Of a stretch of DNA of 64,000 nt, positions 35,157 through 40,754 are shown piece by piece. Source of the DNA: Candidatus Staskawiczbacteria bacterium (GTDB lineage Bacteria; Patescibacteriota; Minisyncoccia; Minisyncoccales; Staskawiczbacteraceae); assembly GCA_016196125.1 (NCBI GenBank), contig JACPYG010000004.1:138-64137 (forward strand). The letters run 5' to 3'. The translations under genes were made by a program, and so were the position numbers. The notes beneath the pieces were generated by a model. The model was not told the DNA's origin. It did no database searches and saw only the letters and a program-made list of their open reading frames with translations. How positions within the stretch are numbered: position 1 is the first letter of the stretch; each line of letters begins with the position of its first letter.

Positions 35157-35708
35157 TTATTCATGCCAATTAGTAAGATACATAATTACTTTAGATGTTT
35201 TATTTGGCCATGCAACGGTCACGGTAACTTTTATGGTATCTGGGTCATTATGTGATTGGTTGTAATTATCTTCTATATTATTTGTTGCAGGGTCTCTTGA
35301 AACATTATCAAAAACAATTTGTCTCGTAAAAATACCTGTTGTTTCTGTTCCTTGGGCTAAATTCCATTTATTAGGATTTGAACTTGTATCCAAAAAAATA
35401 TGATACGGATTATTGATTCCTTTATTGACCGTGCCCAAACCGTTTACAAACCAATCCGTGCCGTCGCGAAAACTTCTTAGTGATTCAATTTCTTCTTTTA
35501 TTAAAGAATCTGCCTGGTTTGTATTTGTTATTAAAGAAGAAATATTCAACGACATAGTTCCTATGGACACAATGGTAATAAAAACAATGCTGATAATTGC
35601 AATTGATATTAAAATATCCAAAAGAACAAACCCCCTTTTTTTATGGAATATGGAATATAGAAAATAGAAAATAGAATAACAACTGTGATTTTTTGTTATG
35701 TGTTTCAT
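35157..35708 (-). CDS. pseudopilin with an unusually long 25-aa leader
   Basis: KKRG-FVLLDILISIAIISIVFI. The leader is encoded by low-complexity ttctattttctattttctat sequence. Confidence 0.65.
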   Translation of the reverse strand: MKHITKNHSCYSIFYFLYSIFHKKRGFVLLDILISIAIISIVFITIVSIGTMSLNISSLITNTNQADSLIKEEIESLRSFRDGTDWFVNGLGTVNKGINNPYHIFLDTSSNPNKWNLAQGTETTGIFTRQIVFDNVSRDPATNNIEDNYNQSHNDPDTIKVTVTVAWPNKTSKVIMYLTNWHE

Positions 35709-35726
35709 GTTATGTGTTATGTGATA

Positions 35727-36647
35727 TTATTGCCAGACAAAATTTGAAACATAAATAGACGAATTAGCAGTTGTCAGTCCGTCTGCTGAATATTGCGCAA
35801 GATACCCGGAACTGTCTGCAGAAATTGTAATTGTGAGGCTTTTGTCGTTAAATCTCCTGTCTCTGTGAATGCTAAATTGCGTGTCCGGGTTGTTTAATCT
35901 ATTGGTGTGAATTCTTATTGTTTGATTTGCGCCTCCAACATTGATGATTCCCGACCAATCAATCTGTCCCGCAAATAAACTTTGGCTTATTGGAATTGAT
36001 TGTATTGCCTGGCCGCTATTAAAATTCAATACTATATTTTCATTATTAACATCAATTAATCTGCTGTAATCAAATTGCAAGTGCCTTGAATCTTTGACTC
36101 TGTCATCGTCTGACAAAGCCGCAGGAACGTTAAAACTGATTGTGCCGGCATTTGATATATAGGCAGTTTTGATTTGGCTTGTATCTGACTTTAATCTTAA
36201 AGAAACACTGCCTGCCGCTTGGGTCGCGCCGGTCAGCTTATCAAAAACTATTTCATTTGGACCGCCCAGGTCAATCGCAAAAAACTCCACTTTTTCAGAT
36301 AAAAAATAAGTTTGGTCTGCCAAAATATCTCGCAAAGCATAATCAGACCCTTTAAATAATATGTATTTATTAGGTGAAACTGATTGGTCTAAATAAACTC
36401 CGTATTGGCTGTTGTTTTCAGAAGACAAAGTTCTGCTTTGGGCAAGCTTTAAAATATTTGTAAATTCTTGAATTCCATTGTCTAAATCAGATTTATTTTT
36501 AATGTAATAAAAAGAAACGATTGGCGCTGCAATCAAAACAGTTAAAATCAAAATAACAACAATTACTTCAATAAGGGTAAACCCCCCACCACTTTCACTT
36601 GATAATCGAAATTTGTTTTTTTGTTTATTTTCAATTTTAAAAATCAT
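35727..36647 (-). CDS. type IV pilin (major-pilin-sized, 306 aa from ATG 36647)
   Basis: MIFKIENKQKNKFRLSSESGGG-FTLIEVIVVILILTVL. The track ORF extends to 36722. Confidence 0.8.
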   Translation of the reverse strand: MIFKIENKQKNKFRLSSESGGGFTLIEVIVVILILTVLIAAPIVSFYYIKNKSDLDNGIQEFTNILKLAQSRTLSSENNSQYGVYLDQSVSPNKYILFKGSDYALRDILADQTYFLSEKVEFFAIDLGGPNEIVFDKLTGATQAAGSVSLRLKSDTSQIKTAYISNAGTISFNVPAALSDDDRVKDSRHLQFDYSRLIDVNNENIVLNFNSGQAIQSIPISQSLFAGQIDWSGIINVGGANQTIRIHTNRLNNPDTQFSIHRDRRFNDKSLTITISADSSGYLAQYSADGLTTANSSIYVSNFVWQ

Positions 36648-36726: not shown

Positions 36727-37932
36727 TTATTGAATTGAATTCAATGAAGAATATATTGGCACAATTACCGAAAAAGCAAAAAAACCAACCGCAAGACCCA
36801 GTAAAATTATCAAAGCCGGTTCTATTACAATAGATACTTTTTCAACGGCATCAATAGCCTCTTTCTCGTAAAAATCCGCTAATTTCTTCAAAATATCAGA
36901 TGTCTTTCCTGTTTCTTCGCCAACTTCAATCATTTCCATTACGCCAATAGGAAAAATATCCTGATGATATCTGAGTGAATTAGACAATTTTTCCCCTTTG
37001 GTAACTTTTTTTGAGGCCTCAATTACAGCTTTTCTAAAATAATAATTACCGACAGTTTCAGAAGTAATTTCCAGGGACCTTACGATTGAAACTCCAGATA
37101 TAAGAAGCGAACTTAACGAACGAATTAAAAATGCAGCATTATCTTTTTTAATAATCTGGGAAATAAAAGGCATTCTTATCAGAAAAGTATCCAATAACCA
37201 CTTTCCTTTTTTGGTTCTCAATGAAAGCCCTGCGATAATAATTAAAAGTAAAAATATCAAAGCCACTACATACCATTTTGTTGAAATAAAATCCCCGACA
37301 TCAAAGAAAATTTTTGTATATATGGGAATGTCAACATTCAAATCGGTAAAAAATGACTTTAAATCAGGCATAACGAAAACAATGACTATTACGGCAACAA
37401 TCAGCATAGTCGCCAAAACCACAGCCGGATAAATCATTGCATTATTTATTTTAGATTTTAATTCATGCTCTTTGCCAAGCTGTAAAGATAAAATCTGAAA
37501 AACTTCTTCCAAGGTTCCCGATTCTTCTCCGACTTTTACCATATTTTGAAAAAAATTAGAAAAAATATCGCCATGCGCGCTCATGGCAGAAGAAAGGTTT
37601 TCTCCCTTGCTAATTCTTTCTTTTATATCCAGCAGGGCGTTTTTTAACTTTTTATTTTTTGTTTGGGCGGACAAAATGCCAAAACTTTTCACCAAAGGAA
37701 GACCCGTGGAAAACATTACCCCCAAATTTCTTATCATTATTATTTTTTCAGTAAAAGAAACTTTGGAAAAGCTAAATCTGCGTTTAATTTTTTTACTTTC
37801 AGAATCCGTCCTAATCAAAACCATGCCTTGGCTTTTAAGTTTTTGGGCGAGTTGGCTTTCATTTTTTGCCTCCAAACTTCCCCTTTGGGTTTGGCCATCA
37901 AGAGATTTAGCTGTATAAAAATAAACTGGCAT
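36727..37932 (-). CDS. pilC: type IV pilus platform protein PilC (GspF family)
   Basis: Duplicated GspF domains, three TM segments, 401 aa. Confidence 0.9.
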   Translation of the reverse strand: MPVYFYTAKSLDGQTQRGSLEAKNESQLAQKLKSQGMVLIRTDSESKKIKRRFSFSKVSFTEKIIMIRNLGVMFSTGLPLVKSFGILSAQTKNKKLKNALLDIKERISKGENLSSAMSAHGDIFSNFFQNMVKVGEESGTLEEVFQILSLQLGKEHELKSKINNAMIYPAVVLATMLIVAVIVIVFVMPDLKSFFTDLNVDIPIYTKIFFDVGDFISTKWYVVALIFLLLIIIAGLSLRTKKGKWLLDTFLIRMPFISQIIKKDNAAFLIRSLSSLLISGVSIVRSLEITSETVGNYYFRKAVIEASKKVTKGEKLSNSLRYHQDIFPIGVMEMIEVGEETGKTSDILKKLADFYEKEAIDAVEKVSIVIEPALIILLGLAVGFFAFSVIVPIYSSLNSIQ

Positions 37933-37934
37933 AA

Positions 37935-38355
37935 CTTTAGAAAATAGAACTTAGAAAATAGAAAATAGAATATCTATTTAATTAAGAAATTATTAAGGAT
38001 TTTCATTACTTCTAAAATATCATCTTCGATATTTTTAAAATCTATTAAAGGATATAAAATTTTGGCAATCTCTATTTGGCTTTCCAGTTCCGAACCGGAG
38101 CCAAAGGCAATAGCTAAAAATTGTTGTTTTTCCTTATTGTGAAATCTATGATAGCTTTCTGCGATATTAGAAGAAATTGAAATAACTGCGCGTCTCATTT
38201 GGCTCGTTAATCCATATAATTCTGAACGAGGAAAACCGTCAGTTATCTTGTAAATTTTTACCGCTAAATCTCTTGACTTCTGCAGACAATTAAATCTTTA
38301 AATGATTTTGTAGCCATTTTTTAATTCTATTTTCTACTTTCTATTTTCTAGATTC
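37935..38355. mobile_element. inverted-repeat-flanked four-helix-bundle cassette between pilB and pilC
   Basis: Left end tagaaaatagaacttagaaaatagaaaatagaat (37939-37971). Right end attctattttctactttctattttctagattc (38324-38355) is its imperfect reverse complement, with 13 terminal bases perfect. Confidence 0.6.
37974..38317 (-). pseudogene. four-helix-bundle protein (23S rRNA IVS protein / Avd-like family) with a 1-nt frameshift
   Basis: Frame 1 from ATG 38317 reads MATKSFKDLIVCRSQEI-stop. The other frame continues QKSRDLAVKIYKITDGFPRSELYGLTSQMRRAVISISSNIAES. Restoring one G (gtc tgG cag) yields the canonical LIVWQKS. Confidence 0.7.
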
Positions 38356-40151
38356 TACTCTATGATAACCCTTAAAACTTCTTCTATTGAAGTTAATCCT
38401 TTCACGGCTTTAACAAAACCGTCTTCAATCATTGTTCTCATTCCGTCTTTTTTTGCCTGAATTGTAATTTCTCTTGTGGAAGTTTTTTGGACAATTAATT
38501 TTTTTATTTTTTCGTTCACTGTCAGAACCTCAACAATTCCAATTCTGCCTTTATAGCCGTCGGGCGAGTCTTTAGACGGTTTTGGCCTGTAAAGTATGAC
38601 ATCTTCTAATGTATCGCCGTTTTTTACTAATTTTTCTTCTTTTAATATCTGTAAAACTCTGTCTAAATCGCAATATCTTGCCAGATTTTTCAAATGTTCT
38701 GGCTTTAATTTATATTTTTCTTTATCGCCATGGAATTTTCTGACTAATCTTTGGGCTATAATCACATTTAAGGTAGACGAAATTAAAAAAGGTTCGGCTC
38801 CCATGTCAATCAATCTCGGTATCGCTCCTGCCGCCTCTGTGGTGTGGAGAGTTGATAAAACCAAATGCCCGGTTAAGGCGGCATTAATAGCCAATCCTGC
38901 CGTTTCGCTGTCTCTGATTTCTCCAACCATAATAATATTGGGGTCTTGCCTGACTAAAGCCCTTAAACCAGATGCAAAAGTCAGCCCTATTGCAGTATTA
39001 ACTTGAGTTTGATTGATTCTTGGCATCCTATATTCAATAGGGTCTTCTACGGTGGAAATATTAACATCAGGGGTATTAATAATATCCATCATTGCGTAAA
39101 GGGTGGTTGTTTTACCGGAACCAGTGGGTCCTGTAATCAATATCATTCCTGTTGGCCTAATCAGGTTATTGCGTATTTGTTCAAGGGCCGCTCCTGTAAA
39201 ACCTAATTTTTCTAAATTTTGGACTATTGCATTTTCGGCTAACAGCCTCATTACAACTTTTTCACCGTTAAAAACAGGCAGAACAGACACCCTTACGGAA
39301 TATTTATAGTCATCTGTTTCAATTTTAAACCTGCCGTCTTGGGGCAGCCTGTGTTCGTCAAGTTTTAAATTTGAGAGAACTTTAATTCTGGCAACGATTA
39401 TATAAGAGCTTGTTATCGGCAAAGCCATAACTTTACGGAGCATGCCGTCAATCCTAAAACGCACTGAAATTTCTTTTTCCAATGGTTCAATATGAATATC
39501 AGATGCTCCCTGTAAAATTGCATGTTTTAACAAAGCATCAACAATCCTTATAATCGGCAGTTCTTGAGTGGCCTTCATTAAATCCCCACTTTTCCCGACA
39601 TCAATTTTTTCCTGCCTGCCGGCTCCTGCCTGCCGGTAGGCATGGGGCAGGCTCCCTCCAATATAATCAATCAACTTTGGGTCTGCTTCCATAATATCCA
39701 TAAATTCCACATCCAATGGCTTTTGATATTGGTTCAAAACGCTTTTTATTCCTTCCGGAGTGGTAAGCCTCGGCAAAATTTTTAAAAGCGGGTCTGTTTT
39801 TTTAATAAACTCAACAGTTATTAAATCTTCCGGGTCGAGCATGGCAACTTCAAGATTATTGCCCAGTTTTCTGAAAGCAATTATATTATGGACTCTTGCA
39901 ATTTGCTCTGGAATAATATTCAGTATTTCTGGCGGAATGGTTTCTTTTCCCACATCCACAAAAGGAATACCCAAAAGATATGCCTGGAATTTTGTCAGTT
40001 TTTCCTGGCCAATAAGCTTCTCTGAAACCAAAACTTCTCCAATATTTTTATTGAGTTTCTTTGCTTTATCTAACGCTTTGTTAAAATTTTCTTCCGTTAT
40101 CAGCTCCGCATCCAAAAGAAATTTTTTAAGCCGCTGTGGTTCAACATCCAT
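38355..40151 (-). CDS. pilB: type IV pilus assembly ATPase PilB (GspE family)
   Basis: Walker A GPTGSGKTTT, Asp box, VGEIRD, His box, tetracysteine region replaced. 598 aa. Confidence 0.95.
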   Translation of the reverse strand: MDVEPQRLKKFLLDAELITEENFNKALDKAKKLNKNIGEVLVSEKLIGQEKLTKFQAYLLGIPFVDVGKETIPPEILNIIPEQIARVHNIIAFRKLGNNLEVAMLDPEDLITVEFIKKTDPLLKILPRLTTPEGIKSVLNQYQKPLDVEFMDIMEADPKLIDYIGGSLPHAYRQAGAGRQEKIDVGKSGDLMKATQELPIIRIVDALLKHAILQGASDIHIEPLEKEISVRFRIDGMLRKVMALPITSSYIIVARIKVLSNLKLDEHRLPQDGRFKIETDDYKYSVRVSVLPVFNGEKVVMRLLAENAIVQNLEKLGFTGAALEQIRNNLIRPTGMILITGPTGSGKTTTLYAMMDIINTPDVNISTVEDPIEYRMPRINQTQVNTAIGLTFASGLRALVRQDPNIIMVGEIRDSETAGLAINAALTGHLVLSTLHTTEAAGAIPRLIDMGAEPFLISSTLNVIIAQRLVRKFHGDKEKYKLKPEHLKNLARYCDLDRVLQILKEEKLVKNGDTLEDVILYRPKPSKDSPDGYKGRIGIVEVLTVNEKIKKLIVQKTSTREITIQAKKDGMRTMIEDGFVKAVKGLTSIEEVLRVIIE

Positions 40152-40206
40152 AGTAATAATTTAAAATTCAAATTTTAAATTTCAAAATGCAATGTAAAGT
40201 ATAAAA

Positions 40207-40578
40207 TTATTTCTTACCTTTCATTGTTAAAACACCTGCTCCTATAATCCTTGCTATTTCGTCTGCCTCCTTAAGGAGTTTTTCAGAATTATATTTTAAA
40301 TTGGGGCAACTCTCAATAACCAAAACCAACCAATATTTAGTTTCATTAGCGCTTTTAAGAGTAATTTGAAAAAACTTTAAATAATCTAATTTAGAACTCG
40401 AGGCTTTTGCTTCAGTTATGTTTGCTCCTATGGAATTTGCGGAACGAATTAACTGGTCAGCTATAGCCCATAAATTTCTATCTTTTCTAATTTCATTGCA
40501 TAATTTAATTATTTCTAAAGAAAAGTTAATCAATCTTCTATTGAATTCCATTTTGAATTTTGAACTTTCATTTTGCAT
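40207..40578 (-). CDS. four-helix-bundle protein (23S rRNA IVS protein family)
   Basis: LIRSANSIGANITEAKASSSKLDYLKFFQITLKSANETKYWL is characteristic of the family. Flanked by an imperfect ttcaaaat-rich inverted repeat (40161-40200 vs 40568-40605). Confidence 0.8.
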   Translation of the reverse strand: MQNESSKFKMEFNRRLINFSLEIIKLCNEIRKDRNLWAIADQLIRSANSIGANITEAKASSSKLDYLKFFQITLKSANETKYWLVLVIESCPNLKYNSEKLLKEADEIARIIGAGVLTMKGKK

Positions 40579-40754
40579 CTTGAGATTTGGATTTTGAACT
40601 TACGCTATTTATTATACTACATACAAAAAAAATGAGCTGTGTATAACACAGGCTCACATCCCGATAATTCTAATTGACAAAAAGTTTTATTGTATTAATG
40701 TTATAGTAGCTCATTGACTTGTGTAACTAACCCAAACCAAGGAGAAAGTTGGAT

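Follow-up and report, generated by a model that had tools for sequence, protein, structure and literature searches.

Why does a type IV pilus operon carry two genes of a protein family named after the intervening sequences (IVSs) of 23S rRNA, each enclosed by inverted repeats? We addressed this question in a stretch of 64,000 nt (hereafter the window; G+C content 35%) from Candidatus Staskawiczbacteria bacterium (contig JACPYG010000004.1), in which a first-pass annotation made from the letters alone had placed one such gene on either side of pilB and had interpreted both as IVS-like insertions. This interpretation is partly supported. The two genes belong to the family, their flanking arms are complementary and have a period of 7 nt, the arms travel with the open reading frame (ORF), and the resulting cassettes are co-oriented with their host genes. 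They are polymorphic in presence and absence, have ORF-less hairpin derivatives and share an identical design with true rRNA IVSs. We hold with moderate confidence that both loci are IVS-type cassettes of ~420-445 nt, co-transcribed with the host operon, whose arms would pair into a stem that loops out the ORF.

Four-helix-bundle genes and their heptamer arms

Profile searches, with scores well above the cut-offs, confirmed the first-pass assignment of both ORFs to the four-helix-bundle (4HB) proteins of 23S rRNA IVSs. The cassette 1 ORF, searched after one lost G had been restored, matched PF05635 over positions 1-106 of 106 (E=3.7e-33, 114.4 bits; cut-off 33.8) and TIGR02436 with 109.2 bits (cut-off 24), and the cassette 2 ORF reached 70.8 bits against PF05635 (E=1.3e-19) and 83 bits against TIGR02436. 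The core motif of the family has been published as GxxRxxxSxxxNxxE (PMC3936711); its RxxxSxxxNxxE part is present in cassette 1 as R43-S47-N51-E54 (MRRAVISISSNIAE), with Q in place of the leading G, and in cassette 2 as LIRSANSIGANITE. The nearest solved relative, identified by a sequence match to the PDB, was the four-helix bundle XCC0516 (2GSC; E=1.2e-17, residues 6-88), whose entry contains five chains and which is described as a homopentamer (PMC4990558). The cassette 2 protein is identical to the NCBI entry "four helix bundle protein [Candidatus Staskawiczbacteria]" from a metagenome-assembled genome and has 1992 homologues. No further family member was found in the window by tblastn, and the family proteins had no match to PADLOC defense models at E<=0.01.

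Both genes are bounded by inverted repeats at the places where the first-pass annotation had put them. The arms of cassette 1 are complementary over 26 nt at 92% or over 34 nt at 85%, and those of cassette 2 over 30 nt at 80% or over 33 nt at 76%. Under one common scoring scheme for cassettes, window genes and shuffles, the inverted-repeat (IR) score of cassette 1 (21.5) was reached by none of the 61 window genes and by 0 of 2000 shuffles, and that of cassette 2 (15.0) by none of the genes and by 2 of 2000 shuffles, which supports discrete repeat-bounded units on either side of pilB. The terminal stem was closed around the ORF in both the minimum free energy (MFE) and the centroid RNA folds of both cassettes, and the whole fold of cassette 1 had a z-score of -3.8. 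Across the whole window, Rfam returned tRNA-Trp as the single match and no RNA family over the arms.

The first-pass annotation did not mention that the arms are heptamer-periodic, nor that cassette 2 is positioned in the 5' leader, between the putative -10 element and the pilB start codon. Each arm is a tandem array of four to seven degenerate heptamers. The 5' arm of cassette 1 reads TAG AATC TAGAAAA TAGAAAG TAGAAAA TAGAA and its 3' arm TTCTATT TTCTATT TTCTAAG TTCTATT TTCTA, and the 5' arm of cassette 2 consists of ~7 units (GTTCAAA ATCCAAA TCTCAAG ATGCAAA ATGAAAG TTCAAAA TTCAAAA). The first TAG of the cassette 1 5' arm is the pilB stop codon, and this arm carries TAG in all three frames, while the 5' arm of cassette 2 overlaps the annotated N-terminus of its ORF (MQNESSKFK). 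Tandem Repeats Finder (TRF), run over the 64 kb, placed period-7 arrays with at least four copies only in the four cassette arms and in two adjacent arrays elsewhere in the pil locus (35642-35727).

The same design recurs in relatives. When metagenomes were scanned with cassette-1-type proteins, 80 loci at 49-90% identity were recovered, and nearly all flanks showed an upstream heptamer array, the ORF and a downstream reverse-complement array. The heptamer unit varies by lineage (TAGAAAA, TAGAATC, TAGTAAG, TAGCGTA, TAGGGTT and AGCTTTT), with complementary pairs within each cassette such as TAGAAAA/TTTTCTA, TAGCGTA/TACGCTA, TAGGGTT/AACCCTA, AGCTTTT/AAAGCTA, TCAGGAG/CTCCTGA and GGTTTAA/TTAAACC. 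A trinucleotide occurring thrice at a lag of 7 was detected in 65 of the 77 upstream flanks and in 67 of the 77 downstream ones, compared with 1-13 at lags of 5, 6, 8 and 9. The flank IR score had a median of 15 in 76 relatives versus 6.5 in 194 neighboring genes (Mann-Whitney p=2e-21), and the arms were paired over a median of 29 positions, including 4 mismatches. Flanking repeats of the kind first noted in the window are thus found at most other copies (~85% of 77 with period-7 flanks). Crude assignment of types by the dominant heptamer produced just 12 exact and 32 near matches among 51, as the units within an array are degenerate.

In 13 cassettes from nearly all different junction contexts (three of them pilB-pilC), RNAalifold predicted a 21-bp terminal helix that was 94.8% paired, versus 90.1% in column shuffles (0 of 500 reached the observed value) and 38-57% in slid registers; five of its pairs were changed on both sides. 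When both cassette subtypes were aligned together, their divergence was too great for the alignment to serve as the seed of a locus search. In copies of the cassette 2 type (63-86% identity), both the ...AATCCAAATCTCAAAATGCAAAATGAAA... arm and the array complementary to it persist at other junctions, including ribosomal protein S7/EF-G, NTP-transferase/Sua5, DegT/epimerase and several others, indicating that arms and ORF travel as one unit. Many gene calls of this type begin with MQN[DE]NxKFK, and this sequence is a translation of the 5' arm. A tblastn search of plasmids placed most family genes in cyanobacteria and the others in Riemerella and Azospirillum. The Picosynechococcus gene (L118) lies between cas10 and cmr3 with clearly inverted GGAGATA arms, the Riemerella gene has GGTTTAA/TTAAACC arms, and the genes on conjugative plasmids of Trichormus (L119) and Nostoc (L120) lie in conjugation gene clusters with TCAGGAG/CTCCTGA arms, in L119 two genes upstream of trbI. 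The exception is Pseudanabaena (L117), where the gene between cas6 and cas4 is flanked by AAAGCTA x15/AAAGCCA arrays that are direct, not inverted.

Stop codons in all three frames of the sense-strand 5' arm were present in 60% of cassettes versus 17% of shuffles, in a sample dominated by two lineages. The period of 7 might be explained by units prone to slippage that maintain a stem tolerant of shifts in register, by all-frame stops or by protein binding; among these, all-frame stops were rejected as the reason because Nostoc-type arms (TCAGGAG) break the rule.

Several further observations concern the arms. In a 517-kb contig (L137, 2493-3045), a cassette of the second type lies between S7 and EF-G in the str operon, with its 3' arm ~100 nt past the stop codon. 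In 18 related loci (within L039-L063), the cassette adjoins a gene ending in ...DFSIMAYYWTG* and a downstream ORF, whose hydrophobic N-terminus (ILFSIFYFLFS) is the translated (TTCTATT)n 3' arm; in most of these loci the start of the downstream ORF overlaps the 4HB stop codon (ATGA). Public assemblies break or have gaps in the arms (L001 ends 31 nt past the pilB stop codon, L124 ends within the 3' arm, and L014 1724-1823 is a run of N in the 5' arm), suggesting that the arrays are repeated elsewhere in those genomes. Heptamer arrays also occur alone. In 563 kb of pil loci from the candidate phyla radiation (CPR), 7 was the commonest period of tandem arrays, with 31 arrays versus at most 10 for any other period. 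Solitary arrays stand right upstream of pseudopilin-like genes (GFTxLE) at L010 14758-14824, L027 15288-15320, L014 5469-5499 and L022 15052-15085, where no obvious Shine-Dalgarno sequence was seen, and a 4.4-copy AAGCATC array lies inside the coding region of a histidine-kinase gene upstream of pilB (L005 9662-9692).

Layout of the pil locus and history of its junctions

The pil locus lies wholly on the minus strand, in the order hairpin, TATAAT, cassette 2, pilB, cassette 1, pilC and then pseudopilin genes and pilM (Table 1). Cassette 1 measures ~422 nt and cassette 2 ~445 nt. The arrangement of hairpin, T-run and -10 sequence is also present in four relatives (L004, L006, L027 and L028), and on grounds of conservation the TATAAT is probably the -10 element of the pil operon; a promoter scan made no call there because no -35 match was present. 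In relatives, the gap between the -10 sequence and the pilB ATG is 6-12 nt, and it is exactly this gap that cassette 2 fills in the window. PilB of the window is 82% identical to that of an uncultured member of Patescibacteria (L004), and several PilB relatives are labelled Candidatus Staskawiczbacteria.

Table 1. Cassettes, arms and neighboring features of the pil locus, in window coordinates and in transcriptional order
Feature	Position	Strand	Basis and remarks
Terminator-like hairpin, then T-run	40637-40651	-	Scan; closes the upstream transcription unit and precedes the putative pilB promoter
Putative TATAAT -10 element of the pil operon	40611-40616	-	Read from the sequence; GTAGTATAAT-like motif kept in at least 9 relatives
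Cassette 2	~40599-40158	-	5' leader, between the putative -10 element and the pilB start codon
Cassette 2, 5' arm	40545-40599	-	TRF period 7, 7.1 copies at 40550-40598; inverted-repeat arm
Cassette 2 ORF, intact four-helix-bundle protein	40207-40578	-	123 aa as annotated; 114 aa from an internal Met at 40551
Cassette 2, 3' arm	40158-40193	-	Complementary to the 5' arm; TRF period 7 at 40158-40186; ends ~7 nt before the pilB ATG
pilB, type IV pilus/type II secretion ATPase (T2SSE)	38355-40151	-	PF05157 and PF00437; between the two cassettes
Cassette 1	38357-37938	-	Between pilB and pilC
Cassette 1, 5' arm	38321-38357	-	TRF period 7 at 38325-38359; inverted-repeat arm
Cassette 1 ORF, four-helix-bundle gene broken by a 1-nt deletion	37974-38317	-	PF05635 match after repair
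Cassette 1, 3' arm	37938-37971	-	TRF period 7 at 37937-37970; ends 5 nt before the pilC ATG
pilC, T2SSF platform protein	36727-37932	-	PF00482, E=1e-55; downstream of cassette 1
Two adjacent non-complementary heptamer arrays, CACATAA x5 then TTCTATT x5	35642-35727	-	TRF; between two pseudopilin genes

For the pilB-pilC junction, 32 loci encoding PilB relatives were fetched. In most of ~25 relatives, including the three closest (78-82% PilB identity), the junction spans 2-30 nt. L027 and three metagenomic loci (L036-L038) contain an orthologous cassette whose ORF is intact and whose arms are of the TAGAAAA type. In L011 the ORF has been lost except for its ATG, which together with both arms makes up the 71 nt of the junction. 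In L021 two heptamer arrays form a 154-nt element that has no ORF. The junction of L014 is occupied by a different cassette, which has TTAACAT arms and whose ORF resembles that of cassette 2 but is interrupted by an in-frame stop. An unrelated 1.2-kb insertion with apparently two ORFs and no heptamer arms lies at the junction in L013 (11753-12977). Upstream of pilB, L007 has a different cassette (AGTAAAT arms) and L027 an ORF-less hairpin. The ORF-less elements fold as long hairpins (z = -5.4, -7.0 and -4.7). The cassettes are therefore not fixed and collinear in relatives: most junctions are empty and others hold hairpins or a different cassette, in keeping with their first-pass description as self-contained insertions. 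Because the elements at both junctions are in part non-orthologous, these junctions must have been occupied repeatedly, in independent events. As a separate observation, a distant family member (L096 3001-3351; 49% identity, TAGCGTA arms, higher G+C) lies between PilB/GspE-like and PilC-like genes, which hints that the pilB-pilC junction is a recurrent landing or retention site.

Among cassettes with two called neighbors, 53 lay between two genes co-oriented with the cassette and 5 at convergent or divergent junctions; between co-oriented genes, no cassette was antisense, versus 53 in sense. The 77 cassettes represent 45 distinct junction contexts, one of which lies between pilM and pilN (L054). 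The median spacing was 2 nt from the upstream stop codon to the 5' arm and 4.5 nt from the 3' arm to the downstream ATG.

We also examined selection on the encoded protein. Among orthologues of the pilB-pilC cassette, the ratio of nonsynonymous to synonymous substitution rates (dN/dS) was 0.04-0.12, with dS of ~1-1.7, and the 4HB proteins were 85-89% identical, whereas identity was 65-72% over the C-terminus of PilB and ~61% over the N-terminus of PilC. These values argue that the 4HB protein is kept by purifying selection over long divergence in the relatives. Recent horizontal transfer into the pilB-pilC junction was considered and rejected, given saturated dS and low dN/dS; strong purifying selection explains the conservation of the 4HB protein.

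In the window itself, the first-pass annotation had noted that cassette 1 lost one G in its LIVWQKS run, and comparison with intact orthologues bore this out. The window reads ATT GTC TG- CAG AAG, and orthologues in L027 and L036 read ATT GTT TGG CAA AAA, so that the lost G (38283/38282) belongs to the W12 codon. A Logan contig that was assembled separately (L124, run SRR12113387) has the identical deletion, which is therefore not an error of one assembly, with the proviso that the window assembly and L124 may share reads. We propose that cassette 1 of the window is a recently inactivated copy whose arms have been kept.

Three further features of the window deserve mention. The TTCTATT unit of the adjacent arrays between the pseudopilin genes is the unit of the cassette 1 3' arm, and these arrays may be a remnant or a solitary array; the N-terminus of the ORF at 35157-35708 (MKHITKNHSCYSIFYFLYSIFHKKRGF...) reads through them and then continues into a prepilin-like KRGF|VLLDIL motif. 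A promoter-like match, TTGAGA-17-TATAAT (11/12), lies at 40288-40316 on the minus strand, within the 3' part of the cassette 2 ORF and directed toward pilB; it may represent a promoter that reads out of cassette 2, or else a chance match. Far from the pil locus, tandem repeats of 87, 93 and 75 nt (3-5 copies, 77-91% matches) occur at 618-2092, mostly inside a minus-strand ORF (1139-2899) that probably encodes a repeat-domain surface protein; the 87-nt array (618-876) lies outside that ORF.

Proposed mechanism and alternative explanations

In the mechanism that we propose, a cassette without an evident promoter of its own would be transcribed along with the pil operon, and its two arrays would pair in the transcript into a stem of ~26-34 bp from which the ORF is extruded as a loop. 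In cassette 1, the stem would set the upstream stop codon a few nucleotides from the downstream start codon. In cassette 2, it would set the 5' end of the mRNA beside the pilB ATG, mimicking the near-leaderless relatives. Such a geometry could make the insertion tolerable, just as the same stem would merely extend helix 45 in rRNA. The stem would also be a canonical double-stranded substrate of RNase III, whose cleavage would release the cassette RNA, and over evolutionary time operon junctions would have acquired and lost cassettes. RNA-level pairing of the arms, cleavage by RNase III and an insulating or coupling role of the stem are steps that we infer.

Several points weigh against this mechanism. 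Stem formation and cleavage are themselves predicted from sequence, and the whole fold of cassette 2 is no better than that of shuffles (z=-0.9), even though its terminal stem appears in the MFE and centroid folds. Mismatches in the arms show no sense-strand excess of G-U-compatible types (40 versus 42), so complementarity could be kept at the DNA level, and a stem alone leaves the heptamer periodicity of the arms unaccounted for. No target-site duplications were seen at the cassette boundaries and no mobility enzyme was found, and recent movement is not indicated by the dS values, which are saturated. A single old insertion with later losses could account for much of the TAGAAAA-type pattern at pilB-pilC. 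The authors of the work on the Coxiella burnetii IVS judge that its protein, S23p, is probably not made from the IVS (PMC4990558). The 64-kb window contains no RNase III (rnc) gene, an absence that says nothing about the rest of the genome.

The lack of a G-U signature would also fit an alternative that places the role of the arms at the DNA level: they would be the terminal inverted repeats of a non-autonomous element resembling MITEs (miniature inverted-repeat transposable elements), with a transposase elsewhere and the 4HB gene as a passenger. Terminal inverted repeats that bound the unit, presence/absence polymorphism, ORF-less derivatives at the same junctions, related cassettes in at least 45 contexts and assemblies that break in the arms, implying their genomic repetition, would all fit such an element. 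We nevertheless consider it quite unlikely, because the arm sequence is wholly different between lineages while the period of 7 is kept, and one transposase would not recognize all of these arms. Nor is a transposase linked to any copy or a target-site duplication visible at the boundaries, the strict orientation with the host operon (53 versus 0) is something for which a DNA transposon has no need, and the same module is found exactly in loop positions of rRNA helices. It is also conceivable that the heptamer arrays primarily bind the encoded pentameric 4HB protein, for autoregulation or for RNA/DNA chaperoning, with their inversion being secondary and with solitary arrays upstream of start codons as further targets. 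Arrays and ORF do travel together across phyla, the 4-7 units per array stand beside the five chains and homopentamer of XCC0516, and the predominance of period 7 in the CPR loci includes several solitary arrays directly upstream of genes. Moreover, taxa with heptamer repeats (PMC4679880, PMC4692102) overlap the carriers of the family, namely cyanobacteria, the Bacteroidota member Riemerella and Xanthomonas. This co-occurrence is anecdotal, the heptamers vary widely while the conserved surface motif RxxxSxxxNxxE shows no obvious co-variation with them, and hairpins that lack an ORF persist, as does the frameshifted cassette 1, where no protein is encoded in cis; binding as the primary role is therefore unlikely in our judgment.

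Within the loci centered on PilB (570 kb), every family gene found adjoins pilB (window, L007, L014 and L027), and members also lie at the PilB-like/PilC-like junction of L096 and between pilM and pilN in L054. One might accordingly regard the 4HB genes as dedicated accessories of type IV pilus operons and the repeats as ordinary punctuation between pilB and pilC. Most close PilB relatives lack 4HB genes, however, the cassette 1 copy is a pseudogene, and near-identical cassette types occur at S7/EF-G, sugar-nucleotide enzymes, pabB/pabC-like genes, cas10/cmr3, cas6/cas4, trbI and 23S rRNA, which makes a pilus-specific role very unlikely. The AT-rich composition of the window, the merely 76-80% complementarity of the cassette 2 arms and the general over-representation of heptamer simple sequence repeats (SSRs) in bacteria (PMC4692102) could suggest chance low-complexity sequence or slippage in intergenic DNA unrelated to the ORFs. 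Such an origin appears extremely improbable: no window gene and at most 2 of 2000 shuffles reached the observed IR scores, the sole period-7 arrays of at least four copies in the window are the cassette arms and one further locus, the lag-7 signal extends to ~85% of the 77 relatives, and this architecture is shared by GC-rich Azospirillum and by cyanobacteria. It is further contradicted by the flank IR scores and the pairing statistics of the 21-bp helix.

If the preferred reading of co-transcribed IVS-type cassettes is true, the classical ORF-bearing rRNA IVS would be one instance of a far more widespread cassette that also colonizes protein-coding operons, and the large, functionally uncharacterized TIGR02436/PF05635 family would gain a defining genomic signature. 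It would also provide a non-functional explanation for family genes reported as "CRISPR-associated 23S_rRNA_IVP"; this point is based on the two cyanobacterial plasmid copies at cas10/cmr3 and cas6/cas4, both of which are heptamer-flanked, with clearly inverted arms only at cas10/cmr3. The abundance of heptanucleotide tandem repeats in bacteria would be tied to one gene family. The arms also have practical consequences for annotation, since assemblies break in them and ORFs acquire spurious N-terminal extensions, and the finding generalizes well beyond the 64-kb window. A bolder extension, which we regard as doubtful, is that 4HB gene and heptamer arms form an unrecognized, phylum-spanning class of self-insulating elements, in which the pentameric protein would recognize the heptamer arrays and would be the missing partner of heptamers over-represented in bacteria (STRR, TAACTGA and GGGAATC). 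Under this extension, the stem would permit insertion at any tight transcribed junction, including rRNA helices and ribosomal-protein, cas and pilus operons.

Comparison with known systems

The protein family, rRNA IVSs, family genes in cas loci and heptamers in the Coxiella IVS are already known. We found no literature report of heptamer-periodic inverted arms as a family-wide signature, nor of the IVS module in junctions of mRNA operons; older papers were thinly covered, and a prior description of either is possible. Family genes in cas loci have been reported previously (PMC3936711, PMC10910872).

The first-pass annotation had also pointed to Avd, the accessory protein of diversity-generating retroelements, and here the distant relationship in fold held up while closer membership did not: both share a distantly related four-helix-bundle fold, and the Avd models stayed below their cut-offs (PF22296 bAvd 24.5 bits, cut-off 40; NF033474 20.8 bits, cut-off 80). 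Unlike Avd genes, the cassettes have pilB, pilC, pseudopilins, PilM, tRNA-Trp and metabolic genes as neighbors. Neither a reverse transcriptase nor a template/variable repeat pair was found among the immediate neighbors, the scope within which reverse transcriptases were sought, as no window-wide screen was made. Avd genes are not known to have flanking heptamer arrays.

MITEs and repetitive extragenic palindromic (REP) elements resemble the cassettes in being small, bounded by inverted repeats and polymorphic at intergenic sites, and in having ORF-less hairpin forms. The cassettes differ in lacking target-site duplications and a terminal sequence common to subfamilies, in carrying a conserved ORF under purifying selection and in being strictly oriented with host transcription.

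Heptamer repeats have a literature of their own. Cyanobacterial short tandemly repeated repetitive (STRR) heptamers were reportedly described by Mazel and colleagues in 1990. Intergenic TAACTGA repeats occur, unexplained, in Beggiatoaceae, cyanobacteria and Bacteroidetes (PMC4679880), and GGGAATC/GGGGATT heptamers in Xanthomonas and Nostoc include 70 convergent pairs (PMC4692102). Like the cassette arms, these published repeats comprise 2-14 or more tandem units, lie intergenically between co-oriented genes, contain all-frame stops, sometimes form inverted pairs and often stand right upstream of start codons without a Shine-Dalgarno sequence. In contrast, they are described without an enclosed gene and are not linked to the 4HB family in those reports, and the units of the cassettes are cassette-specific.

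The closest counterpart is the rRNA IVS. IVSs typically occupy helix 9, 25 or 45 of 16S or 23S rRNA genes, and ORF-bearing 23S rRNA IVSs are known from Leptospira as well. The IVS of C. burnetii is 428-444 nt long, has a 28-bp terminal stem and contains the S23p ORF; 2-3 tandem GACAGAT units precede the start codon, and RNase III cuts at the first repeat (PMC4990558). In Azospirillum lipoferum (L122), the family ORF lies inside the 23S rRNA gene at the helix-45 position (Rfam large subunit rRNA model, 2529 bits) and is flanked by inverted, heptamer-periodic arms (CAGAGGA CGGATGA CAGAGGA CGGAGGA / ATCCGTC CTCTGTC TTCTGTC ATCCGTC); it is a classical 23S helix-45 IVS. The window cassettes share with these IVSs the S23p/PF05635 protein, the size class, a terminal stem of ~26-30 bp around the ORF and tandem-heptamer arms, together with decay of the ORF in some copies and a sporadic distribution. 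They differ in lying at an intercistronic junction and in a 5' leader of an mRNA operon rather than in the loop of an rRNA helix, in having arms that abut stop and start codons, so that effects on translation are possible, and in their excision by RNase III, which has been demonstrated for rRNA IVSs and would be expected by analogy here. The match to ORF-bearing rRNA IVSs that the first-pass annotation had proposed thus extends to size, stem, ORF and heptamers, and the features of the Azospirillum and Coxiella IVSs indicate that the window cassettes are the same module as true IVSs in another kind of host site.

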